Part shown: positions 11,225 to 42,743 of the stretch, one piece after another
Position numbering within the stretch: position 1 is the first letter of the stretch
Layout of the letters: the number at the start of each line of letters is the position of its first letter
Translations under genes and position numbers: made by a program
Assembly (NCBI GenBank): GCA_016748015.1
Contig: JAAOMT010000710.1
Span: 62,001-126,000, forward strand
DNA length: 64,000 nucleotides
Direction of reading: 5' to 3'
From: Geosiphon pyriformis uo1
Lineage: Eukaryota > Fungi > Glomeromycota
The notes under the pieces: model-generated
The model's input: only the letters and a program-made list of their open reading frames with translations
Databases searched by the model: none
What the model was told of the DNA's origin: nothing

Positions 11225-14200
11225 GTGGCGACTATTGGAACAATAGGAAAGAACCACTCCTCGTACAGAAAAGCACTATTTCAATATTTTCAAAAAGACC
11301 TAGGAATACCAGTAGAAACTACTTACGCAGAAAATAATTTTTGTAACTATATCAATGCAAAAATCAACTGCTTGTTAGGCCACACAACTGATACAGGAAG
11401 ACTTGGAAAACAAATCTATCAAAGCTTACTAGGATACTCAACAGCCACGACTACCCAAGCAATTGCTGAAACTCTGTGTATAATCGATATAGACATTAAA
11501 TATTACGTGGCACAACAATTCTCTCAAGTACAACAACCAGTGGAATCCAACTCTGAAGAATACGAAAACAAATCCAACAATCCTGTAACTGCTTAAGCCA
11601 AGTTCATGGTCAACAAAAAACCAAGAGTCCTCTTCTCAACAACTCCATCATACTATCAGACATCCCAAAGTAGAATTGTATTCAACCCACTCCTGGAAAC
11701 CCAGTCAGAAACACCACAAACTCCTGGAAATCCACATCCTTGGAATCAACACAGTTGGACCAAATCACTAGAAGAATATAAATCACTGTTTAGAAATCTT
11801 ACCCCAGCAGACGGTCAAACAGAAAGAAATCCGTCAACTTGAAAACAGCCACCAGCACAAAACCTAGCAGAATCAGCATCTCCTCTGATAGAAGAAACAG
11901 CTATCTTACAACTTATTGGTTCAAGTGACAAAGGAAAGCAACCAGCATTAGCACCCGGAGAACACTCGAATACGTGAACACCAATCCCTTTAAACATAAC
12001 CAGTAACACCCTACTCATTAACTAGATCATGGCTTACCGGAATATCACTAAATTAGAAAAATTTTCTGGTGAAGAAGATAATGCATATTCTTGGATCGTG
12101 GACGCCGAGAAAGCAATTACCGCTAATGGTTGGAATGACGATTACACAATTTAGGCACTACTGTTCTTTCTGACCAGAACTGCCGATTTATGGTATCAGA
12201 GCCTAGCAGAGAAGCCTACCTCCTTTACCAAGTTTAAACTCGCATTTCTACAATACTTCTGTGACCCCAATACGTTAATTCAATTGCAGAATCAATTCAG
12301 CATAATTAAACAAAAAGATCATAAAGCAGTAACTACTTATCTCGAATGATTTAATCAAATCCTGCGTCAAATATTAACTATTGAAAGGGACTACTACACC
12401 ACAGTGCAAGTTCTTAATCAATTCATTAAAGAATTGTGGAATGGTATTCTAAGATCCATAAGACCCTGCCATCCGACCAGTTTACAAAATGCCGTCGCTC
12501 TCGTTTGCGATTTTGAGTCTGCAGAACAAGAAGCAAACCATACCCAAGCTGTTAATTTAGCCATTAATGGAACCTCTGACATTGATGCAAAGATAACCCA
12601 ATTGAGTGAGAAACTAACTCAGAAAATTGAGGGATTCTTAGCCGGAACTACAGGAACTTACCAACCACCCCAATGGAAAGAAAATAACAACAACAGCAGA
12701 TACTCACAGCAACAGAACTGTCAGCAACAGCAACAACCTTGAAAATCCGATCCCCACAACTGTTACTACTGCCAGAAACCTGGACACATTGCCTGTGACT
12801 GCAGAAGGAAGATCATGGACCAAAATCAAGGAAACTCATACCAGCAATCCAGATATCAGCAAAACATGATACCCCAATATTTTATATCTCAGAATCAACT
12901 ACCCCTATATGCACAACAAGTCCCGTATACTCAACCACCACCCCAGAATTATTATCAACTACCACCAATGACACAAGCAATCCCTCACTATCAAACTTCC
13001 CCTTACAGCCCATCCAGACCTCGAGCTATAGACTATAATCAGGAATGGAAGAATCCCAACAACAATTAGGTACAAACCAACAGTAGACCATCTCGACCAA
13101 TCCCTCACAGTCCTGTCCAATCTCGACCAACACTAACTGGATACCCGAATCAAGCTTTCTATTTCAGTCTTATGGAAGACCAGAGTTTTGATAAATCTAC
13201 ACCTGTAGAAGGGGGGGATATAGAACAAATCTTTCAACCTTCCAAGCAAACAAAAAGCAATATCTCATCAGCCACTATTACTGAAGACACCATTCTAGCC
13301 ACCATATTTTCTTTTGACATCAATAATTTGAATACCCATAGCCTTTTTAGTGGAGCAGCCATCAATCAGGATAAACCAATAATGGCCCTATACACTAATA
13401 CCAGAGTTGGAAGAATAGACATTAAATTAATCTTAGATAGTGGATCAGCTGGTAGCATAATCACGAAGCAGCTCATGGACCAACTAGGTCACCGAGTAGA
13501 CCGTGCTGCTACCATCCAGATTATTACAGCGGATGGAAACACAAAACCCCAATAGGAGAAATTGACAACTTCCCCTTCGAGATTAATGGAATCCAAATCT
13601 CTACCAAAGTACTCATCATAGAAGCTACTCAATATTAAGCTCTAGTAGGAAACAACTGGTTGTCAAAAATCAATGCTACTCTCAACTGGAACACCCAAGA
13701 ACTTCAACTTACGTTTAACGAATAGCATGCCTGAGTTCCAGCTACATATGGACACTTTAAAACCCAATGTACCGAGGAACCCCTTATTAAATTCAAAGAC
13801 ACATCAATGCCACCAACTATCAAGACCTATCAGGTTTCATGGGTGGATAATTATCGAATTGAACTACCTCTACCACCAACCTGGGAAGAAAAAGGAAAAG
13901 GCAGAGCCAAAGAAGAACCCCAATCGTCATCACTAGAATACGTAACCTCGGACCAAAAAAACTTATTTTACCAACCCCCAAGACTAATATGTGTTGATTG
14001 TGGAAAAAAACTATTCACTATGGGCACATGTATTGGGAACAACAAAGAATGGCCCATCACCACTAAATACTATTGCAGACTTTGTTTACTGGAAAAATTT
14101 GGACAACTAAAACAACAAGGCAAGTGAAACAACATATCATGCCTTACATATGGCAAAATCTTGCCAGATGAAGGACTTTGGAATGATGTGCCTGGCAAAG

Positions 14201-16085
14201 GAGGAACATGCGACAAGGCTTGTCAATACACCATATTAATCAACGATTGGGTACAAAAGGGAACCTCCATCAAGGATGCTTGGAAATGAGCCCTCAACAG
14301 ACTGGACAGTTATCCACATGATGACCACAAAATCTGGAGAATGACAAGCACCAAGGCTGAAGGCACCATGTCCAAAGAAATATGAGAAATCAAGAACAAC
14401 TCTTGGATGCCCAAATATGATAGACCCAACTATTCCGAAAATGATTTCTTTACAGATGACCCAGACACATTTCAGAACTGATATCAGGAATTGGCCCCAA
14501 CTCATAAAGAACAGGAGCAAAGATTGGCCAATTTAAATACCAAACTGTGCGATCACTGTTTGATCCCCTGTTACTTCCAGTACTGTAACAAATGTGATCT
14601 CATGTTCAATCCATCTCCAAGAATACTGTTTCTAATCACTGAACTACTTGAGCCCAAAAAAGAAGTATTAATCACCGAGAACATGTTGTTTCAAGATCCA
14701 ACTGAGAATACCAAAACAGAACAATATCTCGTGTATTCCAACCTATCCAAAAAACTAGAGCTAAAATGGTATAGTGACAATGAAGAAGGAATCTGCCCTG
14801 AAAAAGTGCATGACACCAATGCTGGTTTCGATCTACGATACTCCAGATAATTACCCATTATTATAGCCCCACATTCCTTTGTAAAAATAGATCTTAAGAT
14901 AGTGTTAGAAATTCTTGTTAGTACAATGGTACAAGTTGTCTCTCGATCTAGTCTAGCCAAAAAAGGAATCGACATAAAAGGAAAAATCATCAATGCTGGT
15001 TACATGGGAAACATTATTGTGATGCTACAGAACAATTCGAACAGACCCTATAAAATAGAATCACAAGAAAAAATTGCCCAAGCTATCTTCCTACCCCTAG
15101 TCAAAATACTCCAATTAACTCCAATAACAACTTGAGAAAAGTTAGGCCTCACTGCCTGAGAAATCAATGGGTTTGGATTAAGTGGAAGAGAAAACATACC
15201 AGTTAATTTCTCGGAGGAAGACAGTGACCAGGTAGAATTTATCAACACTGACACCATTATCTCCATTCCCCTATACTGACAATACATCCTCAAGATAAAT
15301 CAAAAGATTCAAGATCAAGCCCTGTTATTCGAAGCCAGTCCCAAAATCTGTTCTCTAGCCAATGTTGCTAATCTATACCTACCAGCCAAAGCTCATAAAC
15401 ACTTCAAAATCTCTATCCACAACTTGACAAAAAATGTCATTGAAATCTCCGAAAGGACCCTCATTGGTTCTATATCTGCAGATATTCAGAATTCTGAAAA
15501 AACCCAGTTTATTCCAAATTTTGCACAATTATTCTTATTCTGTGACATTACTTCACAAGTATGGAATTTCCCAAAAGAAAGTTACTTGTTCACACCAGAG
15601 GAGATCAATAAATTGAATTTAGGAAATTTAAGTATACTGCAACAAATACAACTCAAAGTCCTTCTAAATCAGTATGTTGATGTCTTTGCCAGTGAAAATG
15701 AGTTCGGATGCACTGATATTGTGAAGCATCAGATTGATACGGGAGACGCTCGACCGATTAAGCAATGAGTTTACCGCATACCCCCATCTGGCAATAACCT
15801 AATTAAGCAAAAAGTGTAATGGATGCTTAATAACAGCCTAATCAAAGAATTGTTAAGCCTTTGGTTCTCTCCAGTAGTCTTGGTCACCAAGAAAAACGGA
15901 AAAGTGCAATTCTGTGTAAATTATCGAAAACTAAAATAGCATCATGCGAGGAGATAGTTATTCCACTCCTCTCATCCAGGAAATTCTGGACAATCTAGGG
16001 AAAAAGAAATGGTTCTTGTTATTAGATTTAGCAAGTGGTTACTGGCAAGTTGAAATGAACCCCAAAGACAAAGGAAAAACAGTAT
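11225..16085 (+). pseudogene. Element A gag-pol, 5' part (gag, CCHC, protease, Cys-rich domain, dUTPase, start of RT)
   Basis: KLEKFSGEED capsid start, CYYCQKPGHIACDC, LILDSGS protease, AGFDL/SRSSLA/KIAQ dUTPase motifs, LDLASGYWQV; many stops. Confidence 0.93.
14790..15185 (+). pseudogene. dUTPase domain in element A pol
   Basis: Motifs AGFDL, SRSS, IINAGYMG, KIAQ, GFG. Confidence 0.9.
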
Positions 16086-17066
16086 TGTTACCAGACAAAA
16101 TTAGAGATATTGTTTAGCATGAAATTACCTTTATAAATTTTATCATTAATTAGCATATATTATTGTTTTAAATTATCACTTATTACATTAGCAAAATGTC
16201 CGAAATTATCATTTAATTAATAACTCAATTTGCACATAACACAAATATAACCTAAGTGCAATAATCAAATCATACAATACCCCGAAATATGTAACATTCA
16301 AAAGTTTGCCAAAATTTGTAGAAATTTGCTGAAATAATTGATAGTTCACCAAAATATCTAATAGTTCGCAGAAATAACTTGTAGTTTGCCGAAATGTATC
16401 TTTAGTTCAGTAAAATTGTAGAAAAAAAGCAAAGTTCAAGTTCATAGAATAGTGTTACAACAAGTTGTATAAAAGAAGAGCTTCTCTCTTCGAAAAAATA
16501 TATCTTACTTTAGATTTATTACTTAGAACTATTTCTACACACACAAAAAAAAATAAATATCAAATAATTTGAAAAACCAAATTCTTTAATTATTGCACTT
16601 GGAAGATTCTCAAAACCCAACTAATGTTTTGAAATTGATTAGCTACCAATTTCAGTAAACTGTTAGTGACTCCAGGCCTGGATAGAAAACGTTTCCCTTA
16701 ACAGAATTCTATTTCTTTTACATTTCTTTTATTTTTTTTTTCTTTTCTTATTACAATCATTAGGGTAGCCTACAGACAAGATTCCTGTAGAAAAATTGAC
16801 TTTCACAGCAAAGTAACTACACATTTTTAGTGAGCTTCCAGATGAGCAATTCCTGGAAAAAAGTTGACATTTACTACAATGTAACTATATAAAGTAACTG
16901 GCAAAGAATTGGCCATTCCACTTATAAGCCCAGTAGTTCAAATTATAGGAGATAATTTGAAAATAAATTCAGTTACTGGAGGTTCAACTACTTCCTGGAA
17001 ATGTGAATTCACAGCAAATCAACATCAACAATATTCAAGAAAAGAGACCAAAAACCTCCGGTAACA
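16086..17066 (+). repeat. Element B 5' LTR (981 bp)
   Basis: TGTTACC...GGTAACA; direct repeat of 24998-25977. Confidence 0.95.
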
Positions 17067-17111
17067 TTTGGTGCTCTCCCACAAAAATAACACAGCAACA
17101 ACAAATTCAAA

Positions 17112-20100
17112 GTGGCAACCACATCAGACACAACAACTCTAGAGTATTACCAGTCAATTTACACCCACTGCAAGCAAATATTCAACATTCCAGACAGAAT
17201 TGAAGTTGTCAAGAAATCAGTATACCAATACATTGAAAACCGCATCAACAATTATTTTTTTGAAAACTACAATATCTCAGAAGTTAGAAGCAATCTTTAC
17301 AATAATTTAGCACACTATTCACAGTTGAGAACTGAAGACCTTAACAGTGAAACACTTGCCACTTACTTTTAAGAACTTAATTTTAACATTATCAAGTACT
17401 GTGAAGAAACATATCTAGTGCAGTCTTAATACTCTATTGATTTTGAATTAGAAACAGAAACAAGCAACAAAGGCAAACACAATTTGAAACAATACTCAAA
17501 AACCATCCCAAATACTCCAATACTACCAAAGACAACTGCCAAACACTTACAAACACCTGAACAAGGAACCAGTTCAAAACTCCCACTTACTATTACACCT
17601 TTTTCAGCTTTATTTGTACAAGCACAAACACCTAATTCACTCTTGAATTGATTTGCAAGACCAGAAGATTTTACATTACTCAGAAGTCCCACCAGACAGC
17701 AAGAACTCCTTCAAACTAGTTCCAATCTTCTTGACTTTCTAGCTGAAAATCAAAGTGAACACTCTGAGACAGCAATGAATAAAGAAAACAACTCTGAAAT
17801 AACTGAAGAGGAATCAATAGACAGTGAAAACAAAGAAGACAAAATGACAACATACATTGCAAAAATCTCTGAATTCAATGGAGAAAACATTGAGACCAGT
17901 CCCCAAGAATGGCTTGACCAAGTTACTAAAGCTGAAGATGCAAATGGATGGAATGCTGCCAGAATGTTAAGAACAATTCCCTACTTTCTCAAAAGAACAG
18001 CAGGAGAATAATTTAAAAACTTGGCTGCTCTATTCAATGATTGGGACACTTTCAAAGCAGTCTTCCTTAAACAGTTCACTAACAATAATACCTTTATCAC
18101 TCTTCGAAATCGGTTTCACAATATCAAACAAGAATCCTCCGAATTTGTTATGACTTATATTGGGAAATTCAACAAACTTCTCAGACAAATTCGCCAACTT
18201 GAAACTAATGATTATTATTCCAATGCTCAAATCTTGGATCAATTTATTGCTGGTTTAAAAAATAAACTGATTAAAAAGGTTTACCCACATGCCCTAGAAG
18301 ATTTAAATTCTGCCATTCAGCATGCAAAGAGATATAAAATGGCCATGGAAGAAGCCAATTGTACAAAACTCATGAACTTAGCCATTGAAGAAACCAGCTC
18401 AGCAGCTGAAGAGAAAATTGACCAACTTGTAAAAAAAGTCGAAAACTATTTCATCAACCAACAACAACAGCAACCCCAAAGATATCAACCACCAAAAACA
18501 GAATCAAAACAACTTCACATCACCTTCTAATAACCAGTCTCAGAGTTGCCATTACTATGAAATTCCTGGCCACTGGAAAAGAGATTGCAGAAAGCTACAA
18601 CAAGACCAACAAAATAGAAGTAATCAACATTACTCTCCACCACAGCAATCTTATTATCAACCACCACCACCAGCCTACTATCTACCAAGACCCCAATATC
18701 AAAGTAACTATTATCAGCCTGTTCCACAGCCAATCCAACAGCAATACCAACAACCATCCACACAACATTATCAAGTGTCTGCTCGAAGATTAATCCCACA
18801 AAATCAATTTACACCACAAAACTGATACCAAGTAAACAACAATAGAATTAATTCGAATAACCAATTAGTTCCCTGAAATTCAGCTCAGCCAAGACCCACT
18901 CATTATCATACTCAACCTAGCTATCTTATAATACCTGAAGAACAGGATTTTCACCATACTACACCCTTGGAAGATAGAACTGCAGCATGACAACAAAACC
19001 CTTTCTATACTCCTACCACAATTCCACCAGCCAGAATTGCTGAAAATGCCAACCTCTCAGACATATTCCCTTTTGAGTTTGAAGCAAATGAGTCACTATT
19101 TCTGCTTAGCAATGTGGCCACCAATGAACAAAAAGCAATTACTGCTATGTACACTGAAACAGAAGTCAAAAGAAAGGCAATTTGCTTGATCCTAGACAAT
19201 GGATCTACCAGAAGCATTATCACCTACCAGTTAATACAACAGTTAAAGAGAAATGTTGACTGACCAGCTCAAACAGTAATCGTTACTGCCAATGGCATGA
19301 AAAAGATTCCAGTAGGAGAAATTGACAATTTTCTATTCACTCTTGATGGAATTACCATTCCAGTCAAAGTTTTTGTAATAGATGTGCCCCAGTACCAAGC
19401 TCTTGTTGGAAATGATTGGCTTTAAAAAGCCAATGCTAATCTGAATTGGGAGACACAAGAGTTAAAAATCTCCTATCAAGAACAACACGCCCAGGTACCT
19501 GCCACTTGTAGTACATTCAACAAATGCTCCGAAAAAGCCCCAGTTTTTGAATTCGAACTAGAAGAAGAAAAGCCCATCATTGAAACATTTATGGCACTTG
19601 GATCAACCTCCAATTGGGCCAATGAAACTGAACAACAGTATTTTTCAACAAATGATTCTTCTGAAACAAAAGAACTAGTGACAACCGGATGGAATGTCCC
19701 CTATTCAAAACCAGAAGCATGAAAACAATGCCCCTATATTCCACTCAAATGCAAGGACTGCCACAAGAAACTCTCATCAATGGGAGCCTGCATTTTACCT
19801 GAAGAAGAATATAAAAATCATACTTGTTATTACTGCAAGGCTTGCTATAGAGAATGATAGGGCCATCTAATAAAAAGAAGTGGAAAATAGGATAACACTC
19901 TTTGTTTGACTTGTGGAGATATGCTATTGGAAGAATGCAATTGGATTGATATAGCAATGAGAGGGGAAGTCTGCGATCAAACCTGCCAATATGCTTTATC
20001 AATTTCAGAAAAAGTAAAAAGAGGAACACCCTTTAATGCAGCATACAACAGTGCTCTCAACAAACTTTATCACTACTCCCATGATGCTGAAATGATTTTT

Positions 20101-22721
20101 GACCTAGCAATAGCATTAATTAATAGAGCTACCAAAGAAGATGTCCGTCAAATAAAGAAAGCAAAATACATTAAATACATCATGGAATTAGCTGGATTCG
20201 ATTATGAAGATGAAGTAGAAGTCTACCACCAAATTGCAAGTCACATCTACTCAACTCAAGAAGCTCAAATTCAATGATTAGAGCAAATAAATATTAGGTT
20301 ATGTAAAGAATGCATTATGCCTTGTAATGAACAGTGGTGTCCTGAATGCTATGCTCTTAGCATTCTTCTGCTCAGTAAAAACAATGAGAACGAAATTGAA
20401 TTTGAAGAACCTGAAGCAACGAAAAAAATTGAAACAACACCCATCTATCTTGTTGAAAATCAGCCTGTCTTATAACTCAAATACTTTAACAACAATGGAC
20501 AAGGAATCAAACTCGAAAAAGCACACGAAATTGATGCTAGATATGACCTAAGATATTCAGACAAGAATACTCTTGTTCTCAAACCCAAATTTCTCACAAA
20601 AATCAATCTCAAAATTGCACCCGAAATCCCACCAGGAGCAATGGTTCAAATTGTCTCCTGGTCTTTTCTGGCAAGCAAAGAAATCAATGTTAGAGGAGGA
20701 ATAATCAATGGTGGATATACTGGAGACATTACAGTGATGTTTCAAAATGAAACTGACAAACCATTCAAAATCAAACATGCTGAAAAAATTGCCCAAGCTA
20801 TTTACTTACCCCTAATCAACATTTTGGGTTTGCAACTAGTCAATCAAAGAGAACAATTAGGAAAAAACAATAAAAAAACCCAAGATTTTGGTTCAACTGG
20901 ACAATTCACAATTCCAGTTAATATAGCTCTTAACACACAGAACAAATCCCACCAGATTCTTAGACTTCCACAACCAATTATTATCTTACCCTTTGAAGAA
21001 CATCCAGAAATCTACATCTGCCCAAAGCCAACAACCACACAACAAATTTTTGAGTCCAATGAACAAGTCTGCTTGGAACATAATATTTTGATCCCAAACA
21101 TTTATATTCCAGAAGGAACAAAGAAAGTCCAAGTTACTTTTTACAATCCCAATAATTACTCCATAGTTTTATTAAATAATTTAGATATCAGAGTTATTCA
21201 CAGTAATATATTTCAGCAAGAATTACCTCAAACAGTCCCCGATTTTTCTGAAATTATTGGACATTCACTACCAAAAATCAACCCAAACCCCAGCTCTGAA
21301 AACTACCATGTTGTTATGGAAAAACTATTTTGAATCAACATGGAACAACTTGAACCACAACAACAAAACCAGCTCAAAGAGCTAATTGCAGAATTTGCTG
21401 ATATCTTTGCCAAAAACAACAATGACTTAGGAAAAACCGATTTGGTTCAACATTAAATCTACACAGGAGATGCTAAACTGAGATGACAACAAGCCTACTG
21501 AGTTGCTCCAAAAAGCCACCAATTTATCCAAGAAGAAGTACAACAAATGCCTCCATGAGTCCTTGGGCTTCACCTGTAGTGCTAATTAAAAAGAAAAATA
21601 GAAAAATACAATTTTGTGTTGACTATTGACAACTCAACAATGTTACAATTAGAGATGCCTACCCTCTTCCCCAAATTGATGACATGTTAGATGCCCTTGG
21701 AAAATCCAAATATTTTTCAATACTAGATTTAGAAAGCGGTTACTGGCAAGTTGCTATGGATCTCAAAGATCGCCCCAAAACAGCATTTACCACCCAAGGC
21801 AGAAATTACGAGTTCAACATAATGCCTTTCGGATTATGTAATGTACCAGCAATGTTTCAGAGATTAATGGATGTTGTGTACCAAGGACTCTTTTGGAAGT
21901 CAGTAGTCGTTTATCTTAATGATACTGATGTTTATTCTTTATCATTCGAATTACACTTAAAACACCTGTGAAAAGTTTTTCAATAATTATGAAAAGCAGG
22001 ACTAAAACTCAACATTGAAAAATGCTACTTTAAAAAAACAAGCTTGGCCTTTCTTGGTTATATTGTTAGTAAAGATGGAATCAAACCAGACTCTGGAAAA
22101 ATCAGTGCTGTCAAAAACTTCAAAACTCCTCGAAACACTACAGAACTAAGAGGATTCATAGGATTAGCCTCCTACTATCGGAAGTTTATTAAAAAATTCT
22201 CAGAAATTGCAAAACCTTTCAACCAGCTTACCACTAAAAATGTCAAATACAAATAGATTACTGAATGCCAAAATGCATTTAAAATCCTCAAAAAAAAACT
22301 AACAACAGCTTCAATTCTCACCTACCCAGATTTCAGCAACCAATTCTGATTAGCAACAGATACATCTTATACTGCCTTTGGTACTATCCTATCACAACTG
22401 GATGACAATGGAAATGAGCAAGTAATTGCCTATACTAGCAGAACATTAAAACCAGCTGAAAAAAATTATTCTGCCACTGAATTGGAAACAGCAGCTGTAA
22501 TTTGGGCCCTATATCATTTCAACCTTTATCTCCGGCCAAAGAAATTCGATATTATCACTGATAATATTGGACTCAAATAGCTTCAAAACAAAAATACTCA
22601 GCTAAATGCAAAACAAACCTGATGGACAGGATTTCTAGCAAACTATCGATACATAGTACATTACAAACCAGGAAAACTCCACACCAATGTTAACTGTTTC
22701 TCCAGAATGAGACAAGATTAG
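17112..22721 (+). pseudogene. Element B gag-pol (gag, protease, Cys-rich domain, dUTPase, RT, RNase H)
   Basis: YIAKISEFNGE, LILDNGS, GGIINGGYTG/KIAQ/DFGSTG, LDLESGYWQV, MPFGL, VVYLND, ends SRMRQD*. Confidence 0.93.
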
Positions 22722-22772
22722 AAAACACAAAAACCAACACTCAACTTAACCAACCAAAACAGCCAACAAACA

Positions 22773-24158
22773 ATGAATTCGGAAAACTACAACAATCTCA
22801 AACAATATTTGGAAATATTAACAATCCCAACAGATTGGTTTCCAGATGAAAAACATCAACTACAATAACAAGCCAAATAATATTTTCTACACAACAACAT
22901 TATTTATCATTGAAATTTCAAAAACCCAGACAAACCACTTAGATTAATACAAGAACAGAAAAAAGAAACCATATTATACAACATGCACTCAAATCCTTCA
23001 TTAGCACACTTTGGAAAAGACAACACCACCCAAAGAACATGAGAATACTACTTTTGGCCTCAAATAAGAAAAAACATTCACAAATATGTCGAATCTTGTA
23101 ATAGTTGTTAAAGAAGAGGAGGAACACATCCTACTGAACCATTAAATCTGATTAAAGTTGGACAACCCTTTGACTGGGTTGGTATCAATTTAGTTGGACC
23201 ACTATCTATCACCATGTAAGAAAACCATTATATTGCAGTAGCTGTAGACTATCTTACTAAATGGCCCGAAGCCAGAGCCATTCAATGAGCAGATGCGAAA
23301 TCAGTAGTAAATTTTATCTACAAAGACATCATTTGTAGACATGGATGTCCAATTAAACTTTTATTCGATCAAGGGACACATTTTGTGAACAACCTGATAC
23401 AAAAAATTTGCGAACAATTCAATGTCAAAAGACCTCTGTCTTCACCCTACCATCCACAAACAAATGGACTTGTGGAACATTTTAACAGAACATTATGTAA
23501 GTCATTAGCCAAAGTCTCAACCAATTTTGAGCAAGAGTGGGATATCTTTATTCCATCAGTGTTACTAGCATACAGAACACTAAAACAAGATACCACAAAA
23601 CACACACCATTTGATCTAACTTATGGAAGGACAGCAATATTACCAATTAGTTTTACAATAGAAACATACCCAGCACAACCAATCGATAAAAACAATTTCC
23701 AGGAAATGCTTCAATGAAGAGCCTACACGCTTCTTAGCACATTGGAAGAAAGATGACGAAGAGCAGCCACCTATATTGAACACTTCCAAACTCAACAAAA
23801 AGAACGGCATGACAACAAATTGCCTTCAGTTACCAATAATTTTAAAGTTGGAAACAAAGTTCTCCTACACAGAACTAAAGCTAAAAAACAATGGAGTGGA
23901 AAATTTGAAAATAAATGGGATGGACCATTCTTTATCCATGAAATACTAGGCAATAGATCATACAAGTTAAGACTTGATGACAAAATCCTAGCAAAAGTTG
24001 CACATAGAGATCATTTAAAACACTATTATTCCAAAAACAATCCTGAACCATTAATTCCACAAATTGGTACACATTCCCTTTTAGTCAATCCTGAAGATAT
24101 TCTCTGAAACTTAGAACCAATAGTTGTCATTGAACAACCATTCAACTTAAACACTTAA
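22773..24158 (+). pseudogene. Element B integrase (separate ORF)
   Basis: Starts MNSENYNNLKQYL; HHCC, DYLTKWPEA, YHPQTNGLVE, KWDGPF (GPY/F module), tail LEPIVVIE. Confidence 0.9.
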
Positions 24159-24309
24159 TTTAATTTTACTAGTTATTCCCTTATAATTTAAAAAATAACT
24201 TCACAAAAACAAAACAAAACAAAACAAAACACACTGAAAGACAAAAATAACATAAAAATCTACATACCAAAAATAATTTTAATCTATTTTTCTCACTCAA
24301 ATTTTTATA

Positions 24310-25029
24310 ATGACTATCCCTCAAAATATTCAACAAATATCTCAAAAATTAATGCTAACTTTAAAGACAATACCTGAATTATCTATCACTATTACAGGAA
24401 AACATATTAATTATACCCAAACAGAAATAGTTGCCAATTTAGCCCCAAATTCACAAAATTATCACCCCTACAAAAAAAACACAAAAAGTTACTCTGGAAT
24501 TCAACTACCAGAACTTTTGAAGCTTGCTTTAAAAGAAAATTTAATGTTCACTCCTATTAGTATTCTACCAAATGCTACTATTCAACAAAAACTTCAACTG
24601 TGTCTTAATGAAGAAAACCATGATTATACTCCAATATATAGATATTTCTACATTGGAAAAACACTTCATGAACAAAAACGGGAGCTTACAGCAGCAAACC
24701 TCACAAAAGAAGCTATTCAAAAACAACTTCACAACGAATTCAAAACAACAGCTGGACCTACAAACAGTTATTATAAATTAAGAGCTGTTCTTAGACTTTA
24801 TAACCTATTTCACACCTGTGAAAACGTCTTACAAAACCCAATTTTACAGTCTTTGAAGATTCAATACATTGGAAAGCTCACAGAACTGAAATTTCAACAA
24901 TTTTCAGACCAAATTTCTTCAATAATTTTGGATTATTATCTGGAAATTATGGACAGTACTTGGACTTTGATGGAGCTCAGTCTTGAAGAGAAGGTTATGT
25001 TACCAGACAAAATTAGAGATATTGTTTAG
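24310..25029 (+). CDS. Element B ORF3, unknown protein (probable ancestral stop at 24986)
   Basis: 239-aa open frame homologous to ORF3 of A, C, D and E; the DFDGAQS* end shared with other copies lies in a shifted frame. Confidence 0.8.
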   Translation: MTIPQNIQQISQKLMLTLKTIPELSITITGKHINYTQTEIVANLAPNSQNYHPYKKNTKSYSGIQLPELLKLALKENLMFTPISILPNATIQQKLQLCLNEENHDYTPIYRYFYIGKTLHEQKRELTAANLTKEAIQKQLHNEFKTTAGPTNSYYKLRAVLRLYNLFHTCENVLQNPILQSLKIQYIGKLTELKFQQFSDQISSIILDYYLEIMDSTWTLMELSLEEKVMLPDKIRDIV

Positions 25030-25977
25030 CATGAAATTACCCTTATAAATCTTATCATTAATTAGCATATATTATCGTTTCAAATTATCACTTATTACAT
25101 TAGCAAAATATCTGAAATTATTATTTAATTAATAACCCAATTTGTACATAACACAAATGTAACCTAAGTGCAATGATCAATCATGCAATACCCTGAAATA
25201 TGTAACATTCAAAAGTTTGCTGAAATTTGTAGAAATTTGTAGAAATAATTAATAGTTCACCAAAATATCTAATAGTTTGCAGAAATAACTTGTAGTTCAC
25301 CGAAATGTATCTTTAGTTCAGCGAAATTGTAGAAAAAAAGCAAAGTTCAAATTCATAGAATAGTGTTACAACAAGTTGTATAAAAGAAGAGCTTCTTTCT
25401 TTGAGAAAATGTATCTTACTTTAGATTTATCACTTAGAATCATTCCTACACACACAAAAAAAAATAAATATCAAATAATTCAAAAAACCAAATTCTTTAA
25501 TTATTGCACTTGGAAGATCCTCAAAACCCAACTAACATTTTGAAATTGATTAGCTACCAATTTCAGTAAACTGTTAGTGACTCCAGACCTGGATAAAAAA
25601 CGTTTCCCTTAACAAAATTCTATTTCTTTTACATTTCTTTTATTTTTCTTTTCTTTTCTTATTACAATCATTAGAATAGTCTACAGATGAGATTCCTGTA
25701 GAAGAGTTGACTTTCACAGCAAAGTAACTACACATTTTTAGTGAGCTTCTAGACAAGCAATTCCTGGGAAAGAGTTGATGTTTACTACAACGTAACTATA
25801 TAAAGTAACTGGCAAGAAATTGGCCATTCCACTTATAAGCCCAGCAGTTCAAATTATAGGAGATAATTTGAAGATAAATTCAGTTACTGAAGGTTCAACT
25901 ACTTCCTGGAAACGTGAATTTACAGCAAATCAACATCAACAATATTCAAGAAAAAAGACCAAAAACCTCCAGTAACA
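24998..25977 (+). repeat. Element B 3' LTR (980 bp)
   Basis: Direct repeat of 16086-17066, preceded by PPT. Confidence 0.95.
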
Positions 25978-26910
25978 GCGTTTACCACTCGAAACAGAAA
26001 CTTCAAGTTTAACATAATGCCTTTTGGACTTTGTAATGCTCCTGCCACATTTCAATGCCTAATGAATGTAGTATACAAAGAAATCCTTTGGAAATCAGTA
26101 GTAGTCTACCTAGACAACACAAACATGTTCTCCAAAACATTCGATAACCATCTGCTCCACCTGCAACAAGTCTTTGAATGCCTTCATAATGCTAGATTGA
26201 AACTCAATCCCGAGAAGTGCTTCTTTGGAAAAACCGAGTTAAAATTCCTAGGACATGTAATCGGCAAGAATGGAGTTAAACCCGATTCAGATAAAGTACA
26301 AAAAGTTAAGAATTTTCCAGCCCCAATCAACCTCAGAGAATTACAAGGATTTTTAGGATTGGCAGGATATTATTGTCAATTTGTCAAAGGTTTCTGGAAC
26401 ATCGCAAAACCACTTCATCAATTGTTGTCCAAATACATATTGTACTTGTGGAAGGAAGATCAACAGAAAGCATTTGACTATCTCAAGCAGCGATTGATCA
26501 CATCCCCAATTCTGATTTACCCAGATTTCACTAAATGATTCATTGTCGCTACAGATGCCTCAAAAAATGCTCTAGGAGCAGTCTTATCACAGATAAGACT
26601 GGACAATAGAGAACATCTAGTTGCCTACACTAGTCACAGCACTAGCCCAGCAGAAAAGAATTACAGCACAACAGATCTAGAATGTCTCGCTATTTATTAG
26701 GCCGTACAGACTTGAAAACATTATCTCAATTAACTATTTGACCTATATACCGATCACAAAGGACTTATTTGGTTACTCAACAATCTACAACTAGAAGAAA
26801 AATATGTGAGATGGAGTACTTATCTGCAATAATTCTCACTCAAAGTCTATTACAAGGAAGGATCCAAGAACACCAATGCTGACAGTTTGTCGAGGATGCC
26901 ACAAACCTAA
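25978..26910 (+). pseudogene. Element A pol, 3' part (RT core, RNase H)
   Basis: MPFGLCNAPATF, VVYLDN, ATDAS, YTDHKGL, ends NADSLSRMPQT*. Confidence 0.93.
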
Positions 26911-26920
26911 TCCCAAATCC

Positions 26921-28288
26921 ATGAATACACTTACTTATCAACGACTATATTAATACCTATTAACACTATGTTTCAAGGAGATATTATCTCAATAGGAACA
27001 AAGTACCATACAAAAACAAGCCCAAAATTATTTTATTTAAGACAACCAACTATATTGACGAGAACACCAAAACCACCCCAACCCACAATGACTAATCAAG
27101 AACAGTGAAAGAGAAACTATACTATATAGCATGCACTCAGATCTGACTGCAGGACACTTTAACAAAGATGCTACTCTCGAAAGAACACTAAACTTATACT
27201 ATTGGCCAATGATGTACAAAGACATTTTCAAATACGTGCTCAATTGTGACACATGCCAGCAAAGAGGAGGAGCAAGATCAACAGAACCACTTCGACTCAT
27301 TCCAGTTGAAAATCTATTTGATAGAATCGGGATCAACTTGGTTGGACCTCTTTCAATTACATCCCAAGAAAATTGCTATATTATTGTAGCCATAGACTAT
27401 CTTACAAAATGACCAGAAGCCAGAGCAATCCAAGTGGCTGATGCCAAAACAGTAGCCAAATTTGTGCATCAAGACCTAATTTGCCGACATAGATGTCTGA
27501 AAAAATTATTATCTGATTAGGAAACACACTTCGTTAATAATATGCTGACTGAACTAAGCCAATGGTTTAGAATAAAGAGACCCTTATTGTTATTATATCA
27601 CCCACAAACAAATGGACTGGTAGAATGATTTAACAAAACACTGTGCAAAGCACTAGCAAAAATAAGTCATGAAAACAAACAAGAATGGGACTTATTCATA
27701 CTTTCTGTACTCTTTGCATACCGAACATTGAACCAAAATATGACTCAGTTCACACCATTCAAACTAGTCTATGGAAAAAAAACTACATTACTAATTGAGC
27801 GAGTGATACTGTTATACCCAACAGAAACAATCAATGAAGAGAATTTTGAAGCTACCTTACACCAAAGAACATACCAGCTAATGAAAACATTAGAAAACAA
27901 TCGAAGAACAGCAGCTGACAATATTAGTCACGCTCAAGAACGACAAAAAGAAAGACATGATAAACACCTATCAGAACAACCAATGGAATTCAAAATTGGA
28001 GACCAAGTACTGTTACATTATACAAAAGCTGAGAAACAGTGGAGTGAAAAGTTTGACCCAAAGTGGGACGGTCTATTTTACATACATGAAGCATTAGGAA
28101 ATGGAGCTTACAAATTACGATTGGAAGACAGGATTTTAAAGAAAGTAGCACATGGAAATCAGTTAAAAATTTATCATGAAAAACAGGAATTATCATCATC
28201 AATACCTCAACTAGGAACACAAATTTCATTAATCAGACCAGAAGATATACCACAAGATTTGGAACCAATCATCATCATTGAAACGTAG
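26921..28288 (+). pseudogene. Element A integrase (separate ORF)
   Basis: ATG 10 nt after the pol stop; MHSDLTAGH...CDTC, DYLTK, YHPQTNG, KWDG, ends LEPIIIIET*. Confidence 0.9.
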
Positions 28289-28368
28289 ACAATGGGCAGC
28301 AAATTAAATTAGAGAATTCAAATATATATAGCATTCGAAAAGCAGCAAGAAACGATAGAAATTTCAAC

Positions 28369-29103
28369 ATGGACCTTTCAGATCAAATTTTAAAATTATC
28401 TAAACAATTATTTGAAACAATTCAAAAATTGACATTTCAAATAGAAATAACAATTGATAAAAAAGAAATACGGTACAAAGATAAGAACAGGAGAGGGGAG
28501 GACGAGAGTTTAATTAGAACTAAATGTTCCCTTTTCTACCCACCACCCGAAAGGCAATGTTGGAGGAAAAATTGCCTTCAGGCAGAAGGTAGAAAAGAAG
28601 GAAGCAAAAAACGAGAAAAAGGTTACAAAAGAAGATACTTGGTCCCTGAGCTCAAAGAAATAAAAGAAGCTTTAGCTCGTGAGACCAAACTCCTCAAAAC
28701 AGGAGAGTGGACACCTGACAACGTCCTGGAATGGAAAGAAAGACTTCCTCCAGCTTATTGGTTCTACAAAATTGGAGAACAGCTTGATTTGAAAACACCA
28801 TATGAAGACCTCAGCTAGAAAACGTTCAACAAAAAAGCAATACAACAAGTAGAAAAATTCATAGGGAAAAACAATCTGACCCTACATTACAAAGCAATAT
28901 ACTGACTATACGCCACCTTCCAGCATTGCCCAAATGTACTACTAAACAGATCTATGAAAACCATAACGGTTAACAACATAGAATGAATAACCAATCAACA
29001 GTTCAAAGACCTACAAAAGACAATACTTGAGACAACAATCAAACATTACACAAACGAAGCCACGATAACAGATACATACGGTTTTGCAGAAGCTCAATTT
29101 TAA
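28369..29103 (+). pseudogene. Element A ORF3, unknown protein of about 244 aa
   Basis: One frame with three internal stops explicable as transitions; ends GFAEAQF* at the PPT. Confidence 0.8.
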
Positions 29104-29117
29104 AAAGAGAGGAATAA

Positions 29118-30199
29118 TGTTACCTGAGTAGAAAAACCAATCCAAAGTTATGAAAAAACGTGACCAAAATGTGACATAACACAGAATAATGTGCAATAAT
29201 GTTGGATAACGCATTATAACATAGAATAATGTGTTATAATGCAGGATAACACAGAATAGCGTACAATAACGTAGGATAACATGTTATAACACAGAATAAC
29301 ACAGAATAACATGTAATAACATCAGATAACGTGTTATAATATAGGATAACTAGTAATAACGTAAAAAAACGAAGCAATAACAGAAACAACAAAGCAATAG
29401 CTAGTGATAGCAAGACAATTGAAAGCAATTCTATAAAACCAAAAGAATGTATAAAAGCAAGTAATTGTAGAAGTGAGAAAAGACAGACAGATAGATACGA
29501 ACCTCTAGACAAGAATTAAATATCCATACTCCTTTATCCTTTATTATCTTCCCTATTTTATTTCCTGAAATAAACCAATTATTAAAAGAAATCAAAATCA
29601 TGAATTCATGTTTTCAAACTTTGTGGAATTTATGTGAATTAACTCTTGTCTCGTACCTTTATTCTAGGACAGATGCTTTTAGCATAACTGCCTCAAACCT
29701 ATTAATGATTTGAACTAATTGCTTTTGATCACAGCAATTGATAATACTAATTTATCTTTTCTCTTTTTCTTTTTTTTTTCTTTTTTTTTTTCTTTCTTTT
29801 TCTGTCTATTTTGGTGGAGTGGCAACATAGTAAAATTGACTGTCTGGAAATAGACTTTGTGATAGCCTGGTAAAAGAGAGAAGCTTCCCCTAAGTTTTGG
29901 ATATTAACATTATCTTGTTAGCTTACCAGAAGGGCGAAAAGACAATGCCAGACCCTAACGACTGCACTCATTAGCTCAGAGAAGAAAGCTCACATTTATG
30001 AAAAACGTTGCAATTGATGAAAGACAAACTTTGTGCCTTATAACCAAAAAACTCAACGGGTAAATTCACATTCAGAAATAGATCTTCAGAGACTGATAAT
30101 CAAGACTAAAGCCAACAGAATTACGTGGAAAACACATCATTAATAATTGAGAGCACCAAACATTATCATTTCCCATACCCACCAAGTTTACCCATAACA
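29118..30199 (+). repeat. Element A 3' LTR (1082 bp)
   Basis: Direct repeat of 10080-11162; PPT AAAAAGAGAGGAA upstream. Confidence 0.95.
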
Positions 30200-35885: not shown

Positions 35886-36643
35886 TGTTACAGTTTAAGA
35901 ATTTAGAAAAAAGAATCATAAAAATAATACAAACTATTCAATTATAATATAGCACAGTAATAATCTTAGAAAGGTAATGATTAACATAGTAGCAAACACC
36001 ATCTCGCAATAGTGGCAAGCACCAGTTCACAATAGCAGCCAACACCAACTGGTGATAGCAGCAAACACCAGGTTGAAATATCAAAAAGAAAGTATTTTCT
36101 TGTAGAACTACAAACATGTATATATACAGTAGTTTTAATATTGGGAAATAATCAATCAAGTAATAAAAANNNNNNNNNNNNNNNNNNNNTATCACAACCC
36201 AAAGTATTAAGAAACTTACTTGTATTATTTATTGAATGAAACTATCATTCATCAACTGAATCCCTTGGAAGAATAATCCTTGATCAAGATTATTCACGTT
36301 GTTACTAATTGATAAAAGCTTTATTGTGAGAATTAGAAAAGCGCTAAAGACTATTAACATTCTGTGTTTCTAGATTAGAGAAACACATCAGGCAATTGCA
36401 AGAATAGCCTCAGAGAAGACCCCAAACAGTGGGTAGATTTCAGTTCAGCCTCTGAGAAGGAGTACATAAACACACACAACAATCAAGAATTAAAGAATAA
36501 CTTACATTACAACAGTAAAAAAAAAGCCTTCAGTGTAACAGTGACATTATCACACAAATAGAACTGAGGAACTCACAAAAGACTGATTGCAATTAAAGCG
36601 GGATATCAGCAATTAAATATAACAAGAAAACCATCCCGTAACA
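35886..36643 (+). repeat. Element C 5' LTR (contains assembly gap)
   Basis: Direct repeat of 42744-43609; N-run 36170-36189. Confidence 0.93.
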
Positions 36644-36725
36644 TTTGGTGAACCCTACGAGGAAAGAAAATCAAAAAGGAAATAATAATTAGCAATAATT
36701 CATTGCTAAAAAGGAAAAGACAAAA

Positions 36726-39700
36726 GTGGCGACAAAAACCCCTAATCTTACTGTTCTTGAATTCTGCCGTGCTATTTACACACAAAATCAAAGTGATCTT
36801 GGATTACCAGAAGGGTGTTGTCCAGCAGAATCTGCCCTCACTTATTATATCAACGCCAGAATAAATTATCATATAGGAAAGGAAGAAGAACCACACGACG
36901 CAAAACTTGGATTGTATAGAGAATTATCACAATACACTACAAAAGAAGTAGCAGTAATAGCCGCAACTATTGTCAAAATCCATCGAGAAATTGAGCAATA
37001 CGCCAACGAAAATTTTCCAATATCCACAGGAAACACTAGAGAACGCGCCAACAAAACCAAAGAAAATTTAGAAACTAATCAGGAAAGTAACCAGCAAAAA
37101 CTAGAAACACCAGCTCAAATGCCAAAGAAAACTGTCACTTAATCAATAAAGAAACAACGTATTTATTCACCAGAAGATAAATCATACCATTTTTTACCAG
37201 AAAATAAGATACAAATTCCATTAGGAGCTGCATCATCATCAACATCAACTCCACAAATGCCAAGAACTCCTAGTTATATTGATAAAATTAAACAACGTAA
37301 CTGGGGAGACATACCAATTACAGGAGGATATTCATCACTATTCCAAAACCCTCTTTTTCAGCCAAAATTTAGAACGGGGTTTGAAAACCGTGAAGAGGAG
37401 TCTGAATCAGAATCCGAAAAAGAGACCAGCGAAAAAACAATCACAAGACNNNNNNNNNNNNNNNNNNNNAAACTCGTGATCAAGAGGAAGAACCGGATAT
37501 AAGGGAAGCCACCTTTAGGAACGCTCAAGGAAATATTATCCCACCTCCTCTTAGACCAATAAACCCACCAGCAGAAAACGGCAACAAAATGACCACACCA
37601 TACATTGCAAGACTAACAGATTTCTCAGGAGAGGAAGAAGAAACGGACGTGCACACATGGCTCAGAGAAGCACAAAAAGCCATTCAGGCAAATAACTGGA
37701 ATGACCAAAGAGCAATTCAAACATTACTTTTCTTCCTCAAAGGCACAGCCGACTCGTGGTATCAAAGCCTGGAAACAAAACCCACAAGCTTCACCGAATT
37801 TAAAAATGCACTCCTGGAGTATTTTAGCGACCCAAACGCCATAATCCAACTACAGAACGAATTCAATACTATCAAGCAAAATACTGGTGAAACTGTCACC
37901 CAATATCTTGCTCAATTCAATCGAATTCGCCGTCAGATTGAAGCGATTGAACAAGGATACTACACTGATCCTCAGGTTTTAAATCAGTTTATTAGAGGAT
38001 TAAAAAGCAGCATTTTAGGAAGAGTACGCCCTGCCCACCCTAATTCCTTACCAGAAGCCATTACGCTCACCAGAGCCCTTGAATTGGCTGAGAAAGAAGC
38101 TAACCATAGTCAAATGGTTAACATGGTAATGGAGGAAAATAAGACAGAAACATTAGAGAAAAGAGTAACGCGATTAGGGGAGGAACTCTCTAAGAAAATA
38201 GAAAGTTACCTCATCCCGGATCCGAGAAAAAATACATACCAACCACCCCAAAGACGCAGCCAGGAAGTCAGCGACAGTCGAAATAATCGCTCGTCGCGCC
38301 AGGAATTCAGAACAGAAACACGCGCCTGCCATTTTTGCAAACACGTAGGACATTTGATTAGTCAATGTCAAACGCAAATGATACAGGAAGCACGCGAAAA
38401 TAATTATTATGCGCCACCCCAAATGCTCAGAAACCAGTACATGCCAATACCATGCCAATATCCCACCACGTATCAAAATCAAGGAGCTTACCAGCAACAG
38501 CCCATAATAGCCAACCCGAATTGGCGTCCCGAGGCCCGAAATCAGCCCATGTGGAACCAGAATGCATTGGTCCAGAGGAATCCAAACTGTGCCGGAACCA
38601 ATCAGCAAACCAATCCAAACTACCAAAATTATCAACAAACTTACTTTAATATACCGGAAAACCTGATCATCGGAAACAATGATGGTAGAAACATAAACAA
38701 AACCAAAAATTCCTCCAAATTGAGCCAGACAATACCACCAGCAGTTGCCACCGAAGATAGCAGCCTCGCAGCTATTTTTCCTTTTGAATTAGAGGAAAAC
38801 GAGGCTATGTTCAGTGGAGCAGCATTGGACAAAAAACGCCCAATCACTGCTATGTATACGGAAGCCACTGTAAACAATACTCCAATCAAACTTATCTTAG
38901 ACAGCGGATCCGCTGGAAGCATCGTAATGCTTCAACTAGTAAACCAACTAGGTTTCAAAGTTGATCGTGCCATGATGTCCCAAATCATAACAGCCGATGG
39001 AAGTACAAAGCTGCCTTATGGCAAAATCGACTCATTCCCTTTTGAAATTAACGGCATAGTAATACCTACAAAAGTATTAGTAATGGACGCTACACAATAT
39101 CAAGCATTAGTAGGGAATGACTGGCTAACAAAAGCCAACGCCACCCTAGACTGGACCACCCAAGAGCTTCTGATCAATTATAATGGCCACCAGGCCAAAA
39201 TTCCAGCCACTTGTGGCCACTTCCAAAAACCCAGCGCCAACCAAAGACCTACCTTCAAATTTGAGGAAAATCCAGCACTACCAGCCATCGAAACCTATTA
39301 GCTCTCTTGGGCTGATGACCAAAGAACAGGACTACCAGCCGTACCAATATGGACCAGCGAAGAAAGATCCAAATGGAACCAGGTAAGTTCACGAAGAAAC
39401 TACCAGCGACACAGACCAAAGCTAGAATGCTCGGTTTGCAAGAAGAAACTCTTGTCTATGACTGCGTGCAGCGCACCGGACGAAGACCCAAGAAACCCCA
39501 CCCACTACTATTGTAACTGTTGTAACAAAGAAAAATACGGTTACCCAGAAAGACACGGAAAATGGGACGAGAAACCGTGTCTCGCTTGTGGAGAACCATT
39601 ACCAAGAGGGTGCAACTGGAATGACTTACCAAGCAGAGGAGGAACGTGTGACGCAACTTGTCAATACATGATCCTCATCTGTGACTGGGTAAGAGGAGGA

Positions 39701-42324
39701 ATGCTGTTCGAAGCAGCGTTCAACAGAGCGTTAAAAAGACTACAGCACTACTCACACAACGAGGACGAGTTGTACAATACCGCACAAGCCAAAGTAAGAG
39801 GAGGAACCGCCAAAGAAATACGACGTTGGAAAGAGTCAGCCGAAGTAGCCGACGAAGTCGTCAGCTACAACATGTTTGACCCAGTGGACAAATTCCAGGA
39901 CTACTACCAACAACTATGCCCACTCGACAAGAGCAAGAACAATACCTTGCCCAAATCAACACTTACCTCTGCGAAAACTGTCTCATCCTGTGCCAAAGTC
40001 AGTGCTGTGAAGAGTGTTAAGACGAAAGGGACTTAGAAAGAAAAATGGAAATTGAGAATCAGCAGTCTCAAAATCAATCAATAAATCAACAAGACTTACC
40101 TGATGGTCCCGAGTCAGAAAAATTTGTAGCCTATACCGACCTAGAACAGGTGACCAACATCCAATACTTCGACAATAGGCACTTAGGAATAATACCCGAA
40201 AGAGCCTATCCAACCGACGCCGAATTCGATTTACGTTATCCGAAAGACCAATCCACAACATTACCACCCAGGAGCATCACCAAAATCGACCTAAAAATAG
40301 CAGTTGAAATTCCGCCAGGAATAATGGTTCAAATGGCATCGCGATCAAGCCTCGCGAAAAAAGGAATAAGCATTCAAGAAGGAGTAATTGACTCCGAATA
40401 CACTGGAAATTTGATGGTTTTGCTACAGAACAATTCAGAAAAGCCTTATACCATTGAATCTAAGGAAAAGATTGCACAAGCAATTTTCCTACCATTGGTA
40501 AAAATTGGGAAATTCGTGCCAGTAGAAAATTGTGAGGAATTGTCACAAACAACGAGAGGAACTTTTGGTTTCAGATCGACAGGAAAAGAAATTGAAGCGA
40601 ATTTCGCTGATACAATAGAGGAAAAAGACGAAGTAATTAAAAATGAGCAGTCTATTACACTCCTACCATATGGAAAATCAGAAATAAGAATAAAAAGAAC
40701 AATTAAAAAAAAAAACCTAATATTTGAGCCCTACCCAGAAACTTGCCAACAGTTTTTTATAGGACTTACTAACCTTTTTATTTCAGCTGATAAAGCTCAA
40801 TGGATAAAAATTCCTATCGCAAACACCACAGAAGAACCCGTTTACATTCCGGAAGATACTATCATTGGATACCTCAGAACGGAACTAGAAAACGCGTCAA
40901 CACCACAAGAAATTCTAAATTTCCCAGAAATTGCCCTCTACTGTGAACTCACTTCAATAAATTGGCAACAACCGGTAGAATGCTATCAATTTACACCAGA
41001 AGAATTGGCCAAATTAAACATTGGAACAATGGATCCCGACCAACAGCGACAATTAAAAGCATTAATTTTAAAATACTCTGATATATTTTCAAGAAATGGC
41101 GAATTTGGAAGAACCAACTTGGTTTAACACCAAATCCCCACTGGAGATGCCAGACCTGAAAAACAATGCACTTACCGTGTCCCACTAATAGAGCATAATT
41201 TTATCAGAGAAGAAGTCCAAAGCATGTTGGAAAAAGGAATAATACAACCATCAATGAGCTCATGGTCCTCACCAGTTGTTTTAGTAAAGAAAAAGAACGG
41301 AAAAATTAGATTTTGTGTTGACTATCGCAAATTAAACAGCAAAACAACCAAAGACTCATACCCAATACCATTAATTGACGAAATCTTTGACGTTTTTGGA
41401 GGAGCAAAATGGTTTTCTACACTAGACTTGACCAGTGAGTACTGGCAAGTGGAAATGGACCCAAAGGACAGGCATAAAACAGCATTCACAACACAAAATG
41501 GCAATTATGAGTTCAATGTAATGCCATTTGGATTAACAAACGCTCCCGCGACATTCCAAAGACTAATGGACGTAATTTACTCCGGAATCCTGTGGCAATC
41601 CGTTGTAGTCTACTTGGATGATACAAATGTTTTCTCATCAAAATTCACAGATCATTTCCAACATTTACAACAAGTTTTTGAGAGATTGAGACATGCTGGA
41701 CTTAAACTAAATCTAGAAAAATGTTTCTTTGGGAAAAATGAGCTAGCATTTTTAGGACACGTAGTTGGAAAAGATGGAATAAAACCANNNNNNNNNNNNN
41801 NNNNNNNAAACATCGCCAAACCCCTTAATTACCTACTATCTAAAAATGTGAAGTTTGAATGGACTGAAGCACAACAAAAAGCTTTTGAGTACCTTAGACA
41901 AAAGCTCATTGAATCACCAATAATGATCTATCCGAATTTCAACAAGAAATTCATTTTGGCCACAGATGCCTCTGGAACTGGACTTGGAGCCATTCTGTCA
42001 CAAAAAGATGATAATGGAAGAGAACGTGTAATCGCTTATGCCAGCAGAAGTCTCAGTACGGCAGAACAAAACTACACAGCACATGAACTTGAATGCTTAG
42101 CAGTAGTCTGGAGTTGTGTTCACTTTGACACATATTTACGGTACCAACCCTTTGAGATTACGACAGATTATAGAGGTCTGGTCTGGTTAAATAACAAGAA
42201 AGCGCTAAAAGGAAAATACACCAGATGGTCACAAATATTAGTACCATACAATTATATTATCAAATACAAAGAAGGTACCAAAAATGCTAATGCCGACTGT
42301 TTGTCAAGAATGAGACACACATAA
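36726..42324 (+). pseudogene. Element C gag-pol (gag, CCHC, protease, Cys-rich domain, dUTPase, RT, RNase H), nearly intact
   Basis: Long ORFs 37589-39301 (gag and protease in one frame), 40045-41127 (dUTPase), 41224-42324 (YLDD, ATDAS, NADCLSR). Confidence 0.95.
40185..40580 (+). pseudogene. dUTPase domain in element C pol
   Basis: DAEFDL, ASRSSLA, GVIDSEYTG, KIAQ, RGTFGFRST. Confidence 0.93.
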
Positions 42325-42353
42325 AAATCACCAACCCACCCGCCACAACAACA

Positions 42354-42730: not shown

Positions 42731-42743
42731 AAGGAGGGAATAA

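Follow-up and report, generated by a model that had tools for sequence, protein, structure and literature searches.

In LTR retrotransposons and retroviruses as described in textbooks, integrase enters the particle as part of Pol. The integrase of Ty3 is cut from a polyprotein, and in both Ty3 and Ty1 integrase provided alone in trans failed to rescue reverse transcription, according to the accessible portion of PMC5371799. Two surveys of fungal elements, in the parts available, place integrase in pol, in elements of one or two ORFs. The Pol of foamy viruses is made without fusion to Gag and needs a separate route into the particle (PMC3705302 and PMC3196705, both in excerpt), which shows that an enzyme can be packaged without being fused to Gag (excerpt of PMC3705302). 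Translational restart after a long ORF has fungal and retrotransposon precedents in HvV190S, CHV1 and SART1, where it is marked by stop-start overlaps (PMC10275272, in excerpt). Full-text searches of the literature gave no account of an LTR retrotransposon whose integrase has an ORF to itself, and neither did the accessible portions of 10.1101/2021.03.30.436303, PMC13465315, PMC6431247, PMC5911963, PMC3248453, PMC2864245, PMC2774666 and PMC2836005; Repbase, subscription journals and supplements may hold a mention.

The window analysed here, a whole stretch of 64,000 nucleotides from Geosiphon pyriformis, contains elements that resemble Ty3 in their LTRs with TG..CA ends, primer-binding site, polypurine tract, 4-bp target duplication, and gag followed by PR-RT-RH-IN. 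They differ from it in a Pol that terminates with RNase H, an integrase that begins at its own ATG, a dUTPase ahead of RT and an extra ORF behind integrase. With Ginger1 they share a free-standing gypsy-like integrase carrying YPYY, HHCC, DDE and GPY/F features, and the two are neighbours in trees. However, Ginger1 lacks RT, is bounded by terminal inverted repeats and carries a protease at its C-terminus, whereas the window elements have LTRs, gag and RT, and no OTU/Ulp1 domain was found in their integrases. Gmr1-type gypsy elements (a name taken from the excerpted PMC2774666) also show a non-standard integrase arrangement, but there integrase lies before RT, and no integrase upstream of RT was found in the window. 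In foamy viruses the whole Pol, including integrase, comes from a spliced RNA, whereas in the window elements integrase alone is detached from Pol and splicing finds no support. Finally, HvV190S, CHV1, the caliciviruses and the non-LTR element SART1 provide a likeness in their downstream ORF behind a long ORF and their RNA structure at the junction, with TAATG or ATGA present in some relatives of our elements (PMC10275272, in excerpt). In contrast to these restart systems, the gaps in the window measure 10-51 nt, without overlap and without a TURBS-like TGGGA in the 120 nt before the stop, and the hairpins of relatives lie between stop and start.

Nested Ty3/gypsy elements and their RNase H-integrase junctions

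The window contains a nest of five decayed Ty3/gypsy copies, with B lying within A, and C and E within D. Pfam matches cover Gag, protease, dUTPase, RT, RNase H and integrase, and Pfam together with mapping gives the order Gag, aspartic protease, RT, RNase H, integrase that is typical of Ty3/gypsy. Direct LTRs with the expected ends, primer-binding site and polypurine tract are present (termini were read for A, B and C), and LTR pairs are 89-98% identical across the window elements. The target duplication is exact in C and shows one or two changes in A and B. The integrases have the HHCC, the DDE core and a GPY/F-type end, with catalytic residues decayed in the window copies. Among solved structures, the integrase profile matches Ty3 Gag-Pol best (E 1e-48). 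The C-terminal chromodomain that marks chromoviruses was found neither in the integrase end of A nor, as PF00385, among the 120 nearest integrases. The features are as follows.

10080..30199, forward strand: element A, Ty3/gypsy LTR retrotransposon; LTRs at about 10080-11162 and 29118-30199, 89.6% identical; B lies inside its RT
26872..26910, forward strand: RNase H end of A; NADSLSR, then 4 residues, then TAA at 26908-26910
26911..26920, forward strand: spacer of A; 10 nt, without G and without ATG
26921..28288, forward strand: integrase ORF of A with its own ATG at 26921; YPYY-type N-terminus, HHCC, core and SH3-like end; single frame with 8 decay stops
28282..28818, forward strand: extra ORF of A after integrase, an open stretch without Pfam match
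16086..25977, forward strand: element B, nested in A; LTRs 93.3% identical
22719..22772, forward strand: RNase H stop of B (TAG at 22719-22721) and 51-nt spacer
22773..24107, forward strand: integrase ORF of B with its own ATG at 22773; single frame, decayed
35886..43609, forward strand: element C, nested in the 5' LTR of D; LTRs 97.3-97.6% identical, 4-bp target duplication; gag-PR-unknown-dUTPase-RT-RH
42322..42353, forward strand: RNase H stop of C (TAA at 42322-42324) and 29-nt spacer; no stop variant of at least 12% in run X1
42354..42460, forward strand: integrase of C, first ~35 codons from the ATG at 42354, then an internal deletion with loose ends at 42454 and 42460
50130..50164, forward strand: RNase H stop of D (TAA at 50130-50132) and 32-nt spacer
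50165..50925, forward strand: 5' part of the integrase of D with its own ATG at 50165; interrupted by E, resuming near 60700-61325
50926..60597, reverse strand: element E, inserted in the integrase of D; LTRs 90.2% identical
53677..53709, reverse strand: RNase H stop of E (TAA at 53709-53707) and 30-nt spacer
52310..53676, reverse strand: integrase ORF of E with its own ATG at 53676; decayed, one frameshift, lower end approximate

All five junctions, with their stops and ATGs, were re-read and lie where the initial annotation had put them. In every copy the RNase H stop is codon +5, exactly 4 residues after the NxD.LSR-type motif. The last 165 RNase H codons of the five copies contain 5, 4, 0, 2 and 2 premature stops, and the chance of five stops at the same codon is then about 1e-9 (rate product 6.5e-10, with the 0 set to 1/165). 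As the RT-RH regions of D and E are 78% identical, these two are close kin, which leaves about four independent families and a chance figure nearer 5e-8. The spacers between stop and integrase ATG measure 10, 51, 29, 32 and 30 nt in A to E and place integrase in frames +1, 0, +2, +2 and 0 relative to Pol, which agrees with the earlier reading of differing frames with B and E in frame. They are also C/A-rich as first described: their 152 bases comprise 82 A, 47 C, 18 T and 5 G, while G makes up 4-15% of other non-coding parts of the same elements. The junction observation is thus confirmed in the window itself.

Three further features of the window can be mentioned. Element C has lost most of its integrase internally (42454-42460) and the break shows a short overlap, yet its two LTRs are nearly identical and its target duplication is exact; integrase may have been supplied in trans at its integration, or the deletion may have come later. 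A Cys-rich segment between protease and dUTPase (39302-40036) has no Pfam match, and a decayed element at 2843-8588, with a weak RT and a match to RNase H (PF00075), is probably of the non-LTR type.

The split junction in family C and in relatives

The initial annotation had proposed that these stops are not products of decay and had called for a consensus of the junction over many copies. This was obtained for family C from contigs of the DNA run X1 placed on its junction (1165 pieces, summed depth ~135,000 in the bin of the stop); X1 is possibly the source sample, and the result describes family C rather than an independent organism. Among 26 variants of at least 12% at the junction, none touches the stop or the ATG, and the spacer has no indel. 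As a control, the decay stop at 39299 in the polyprotein of C was compared: at this position the base C accounts for 67,248 of a depth of 69,067, and the codon is a sense codon in 97%. The split is thus fixed in family C.

Two other runs gave contigs over element C. X2 is labelled DNA but behaves as RNA, and the contigs of X3 likewise behave as RNA. Over 36751-43609 these contigs show many GT..AG introns on the minus strand, corresponding to an antisense transcript spliced many times, which covers LTR, gag, PR and dUTPase; one of its introns extends across the RNase H stop.

An RNase H end together with integrase is present in 29 of 82 metagenome and viral loci. Of these junctions 21 are split and 8 are fused, the latter belonging to more distant relatives (30-38% identity), so that a continuous RNase H-integrase frame, which the initial annotation had regarded as contrary to its proposal if found in most families, is in the minority. 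Integrase inside the Pol polyprotein, the canonical layout, is found at none of the five window junctions. Genome contigs added two further split loci, and viral contigs held only two integrase loci, both distant. Both sides are open in 11 of the 20 split loci tested, so relatives with intact ORFs are split as well. Three loci flagged as split by our script (L097, L103 and L107) proved to be decayed copies of the fused type and were left uncounted, and L087 is fused. The gypsy elements L083-L112 lie inside prokaryotic genome assemblies; they most likely represent contaminating eukaryotic DNA in MAGs and in a Glomeribacter assembly.

With the window included and three near-duplicates dropped, 25 non-redundant junctions could be compared. 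Frames 0, +1 and +2 occur in 8, 5 and 12 of them, and spacers range from -8 to 727 nt (13 of at most 51 nt, 12 longer, five within 18 nt). Stop and start overlap at three junctions, as TAATG (-1), as ATGA (-4) and by -8 (L016, L033 and L068), and at none of the five in the window. Since all three frames and such a range of spacers occur, no single readthrough or frameshift rule fits.

Protein searches point in the same direction. An integrase Pfam domain is absent from 45 of the best 50 RNase H homologs. Among the 120 listed of 333 such homologs, 25 end at most 4 residues past the motif and a further group finishes with an acidic tail of unrelated sequence, although some of those without a tail are possibly cut by contig ends. 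Of the nearest 120 among 1129 integrase homologs (250-797 aa only), 99 open with a Met that lies 64-73 residues ahead of the first zinc His. A search for longer, fused forms (120 of 644 listed) gave six rows at least 44% identical, of which P0345 is a true fusion and five are NCBI gene models, two of these jumping from inside RNase H into integrase. The nearest named homologs come from Rhizophagus and Cetraspora (Glomeromycota fungi), which makes a host of this phylum likely, and lone integrase genes are already listed by NCBI in R. irregularis.

Taken with the trees described below, the data on family C and on intact relatives support the initial claim that integrase is a separate, ATG-initiated ORF, and we regard a split RNase H and a free, ATG-initiated integrase as the virtually certain architecture of this lineage. 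That the stops are decay, or that a fixed readthrough or frameshift restores one polyprotein, is largely refuted and in our opinion very improbable. The window copies are indeed heavily decayed, 8 of the 25 junctions are in frame, and fusion exists nearby, in P0345 and in some NCBI gene models. Nevertheless, the stop is invariant in family C, intact relatives are split, all three frames and overlaps occur, and in the fused models P0341, P0343 and P0120 the sequence passes into integrase from within RNase H or from the NxD motif, as though an intron had been predicted across the stop. Gene callers appear to do one of two things, either spanning the stop by an intron or annotating integrase as a gene by itself, so that the annotation of these elements in mycorrhizal genomes is probably wrong. 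The Pol-integrase rule is broken in a large lineage that includes intact copies, which shows that the link is dispensable.

Proposed expression of the free integrase

We interpret the window as decayed copies of a Ty3/gypsy lineage in which Pol stops after RNase H and the free integrase is likely produced from full-length RNA by restart or internal entry, a reading to which we give a probability of about 0.6. As to the translation step, restart in the families of the window and structure-assisted entry elsewhere on the full-length RNA seem to us somewhat better than an even bet from the sequences at hand. In the window families, a ribosome finishing Pol would scan a short, unstructured, G-poor and ATG-free spacer up to a start in strong context. 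In other branches, an overlap of stop and start codons, mini-ORFs acting as relays or a small structured RNA just before the ATG would lead to the same outcome. Integrase made in cis would then join the particle or the cDNA by a putative binding to element RNA or to Gag-Pol, without covalent link. Because integrase gave no trans rescue in Ty3 and Ty1, this lineage must have relaxed or replaced that link.

Several signals at the integrase start bear on this reading. Over 51 junctions (near-duplicates included), a purine is present at -3 in 45 and G at +4 in 41; nine loci without an in-frame ATG by script were omitted from this count (four cut by contig ends, three with ATA where the ATG would be expected and two apparently shifted). 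Upstream ATGs are depleted, with 18 observed against 36.9 expected. In L017, L018, L039, L040 and L042, mini-ORFs run up to or across the start of integrase, and the ORF that follows integrase is similarly spaced, at -29 to 131 nt (11 loci). Against this reading, most junctions are not closely spaced, and some long spacers (L004, L018 and L024) contain several ATGs, for which plain restart does not account. Upstream folding of the window copies gave z values of -1.05 to +1.52, their spacers are unfolded, and no covarying upstream fold was found in these copies, which are decayed and diverged. A 7-bp stem right before the stop was considered as a signal and rejected; it shows no two-sided change and follows the codons.

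In relatives, two structured RNA motifs were found. The first is a hairpin of 36 nt that carries an 11-nt bulge and is placed 4-38 nt upstream of the integrase ATG; in nine sequences, 96% of cells pair and 7 of 11 pairs show two-sided changes. Its covariation score was reached by none of 500 shuffles and collapses in slid controls, with the structure derived from the same sequences on which it was scored and the shuffles ignoring kinship. The hairpin model matches 12 loci, all just before an integrase ATG, namely the original nine plus L013, L055 and L010, of which L013 is a near-duplicate of L012 (positions include L005:586-621, L013:4464-4499 and L014:295-330). Most of them belong to a branch with a long acidic, Cys/His-containing Pol tail. 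The model has no match in the window, and the hairpin pattern has none in viral contigs. A second, larger structured motif lies upstream of integrase or of the start of a coupled mini-ORF in about eight other loci (L042:110-245, L075:18-145, L076:222-347, L024, L039, L040, L061 and L065); with only three sequences folded and two-sided change in 3 of 30 pairs, it is a lead. We use 'T-loop-like' for it as a provisional label. A resemblance of either motif to ribozymes, to T-box stems or to IRESs of viruses found no confirmation, and none is claimed. An Rfam scan of 20 loci returned four weak matches, none at the gathering score, and matched neither motif. The position of both motifs suggests that they may act in initiation; a role as leader or in packaging would also fit. 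Being compact and well delimited, the covarying hairpins are candidates for novel signals in translation or packaging.

Stop-start overlaps, coupled mini-ORFs and the covarying hairpin together point to ribosomal restart or internal initiation. Among the routes listed in the initial annotation, it is accordingly re-initiation, or internal initiation, that is favoured, while splicing loses ground and a subgenomic RNA remains a rival. The latter, with integrase translated from its own subgenomic mRNA made from an internal promoter in RNase H or the spacer and the hairpins serving as 5'-leader or packaging signals, appears to us the main rival, though the less likely of the two. A strong start context and ATG-poor leaders would also suit scanning from a cap, the freedom of spacer length and frame fits an internal-promoter mRNA, and the T-rich or TATA-like tracts seen in the spacers of L001, L014, L024, L031 and L083 could be promoters. 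On the other hand, the overlapping stop-start codons (L016, L033, L068) and coupled mini-ORFs are unneeded under an internal promoter, and the window spacers of 10-51 nt are too short for one.

Production of integrase from a spliced mRNA, in the manner of foamy-virus Pol or gypsy env, has a precedent in foamy Pol (PMC3705302, in excerpt) and a host that splices antisense C transcripts many times. We nonetheless consider it unlikely. A YAG with a branch-like word precedes integrase in 11 of 35 loci, above the 16% found inside the integrase coding region, but this falls in the range of shuffles (8.8 +/- 2.6), and a YAG free of an upstream ATG is lacking in 10 of the 35 loci, A, C and D among them. 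A conserved splice acceptor before the integrase start, such as foamy-like expression predicts, is not enriched in these 35 loci. No sense GT..AG joint is present among the joints listed for C; the spliced contigs seen in X2 and X3 are antisense only, and none of their contigs bridges the stop of C in sense form, which counts neither way.

Translation from the full-length RNA could also be part of a wider picture, in which a deep fungal lineage is truly polycistronic and makes Gag-Pol, integrase and a third protein from one RNA, through stop-start coupling in some branches and, in others, through compact RNA elements (the 36-nt bulged hairpin and the larger T-loop-like motif) that would signal internal entry or restart. 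Integrase would then reach its target outside Pol, and the free integrase gene would be the type of intermediate that could give rise to Ginger1 DNA transposons. We advance this only tentatively. Delivery of integrase without Gag, and fungal translation behind a very long ORF, become testable with these elements.

Origin of the split and neighbouring ORFs

In integrase trees, split and lone integrases fall in one deep group with modest support, and the RT-RH tree contains a 56-row group without any fused member (SH 83); the query profile came from lone integrases, and the sampling is biased in their favour. Nine fused rows lie within the same unresolved 80-row integrase group as the split ones. 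Trees constrained to unite the 21 split rows verified in DNA remain acceptable (p-AU 0.586), and a single origin of the split is possible on the basis of these alignments. Rows with integrase before RT among the fetched loci form a separate clade.

Concerning origin rather than expression, the free integrase might be a captured Ginger1 DNA-transposon gene that took the place of the original one. The integrase begins just before a YPYY-type motif that is common to Ginger1 (excerpt of PMC2836005), and Ginger1-like proteins with Ulp1 domains branch beside the split group, with weak support. Fused gypsy integrases, however, lie between or among the split and Ginger1 ones, and the fused L044/P0362, P0066 and P0092 are near the split group in RT-RH and integrase trees alike, which suits fission in place; we find such a capture unlikely.

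Other domains were found around the junction. Past RNase H, the Pol of L013:3494-4441, L083, L024, P0009 and P0023 carries a non-integrase tail of 200-590 aa with no clear Pfam match, and the R. clarus model P0011 has a P-loop kinase-like domain at this place. In L017:623-1237, an ORF resembling Mrr restriction endonucleases (Pfam E 4e-9) is stop-start coupled to integrase. A third ORF of ~120-250 aa follows integrase; its window copies at 28282-28818 and 24283-25029 have no Pfam match.
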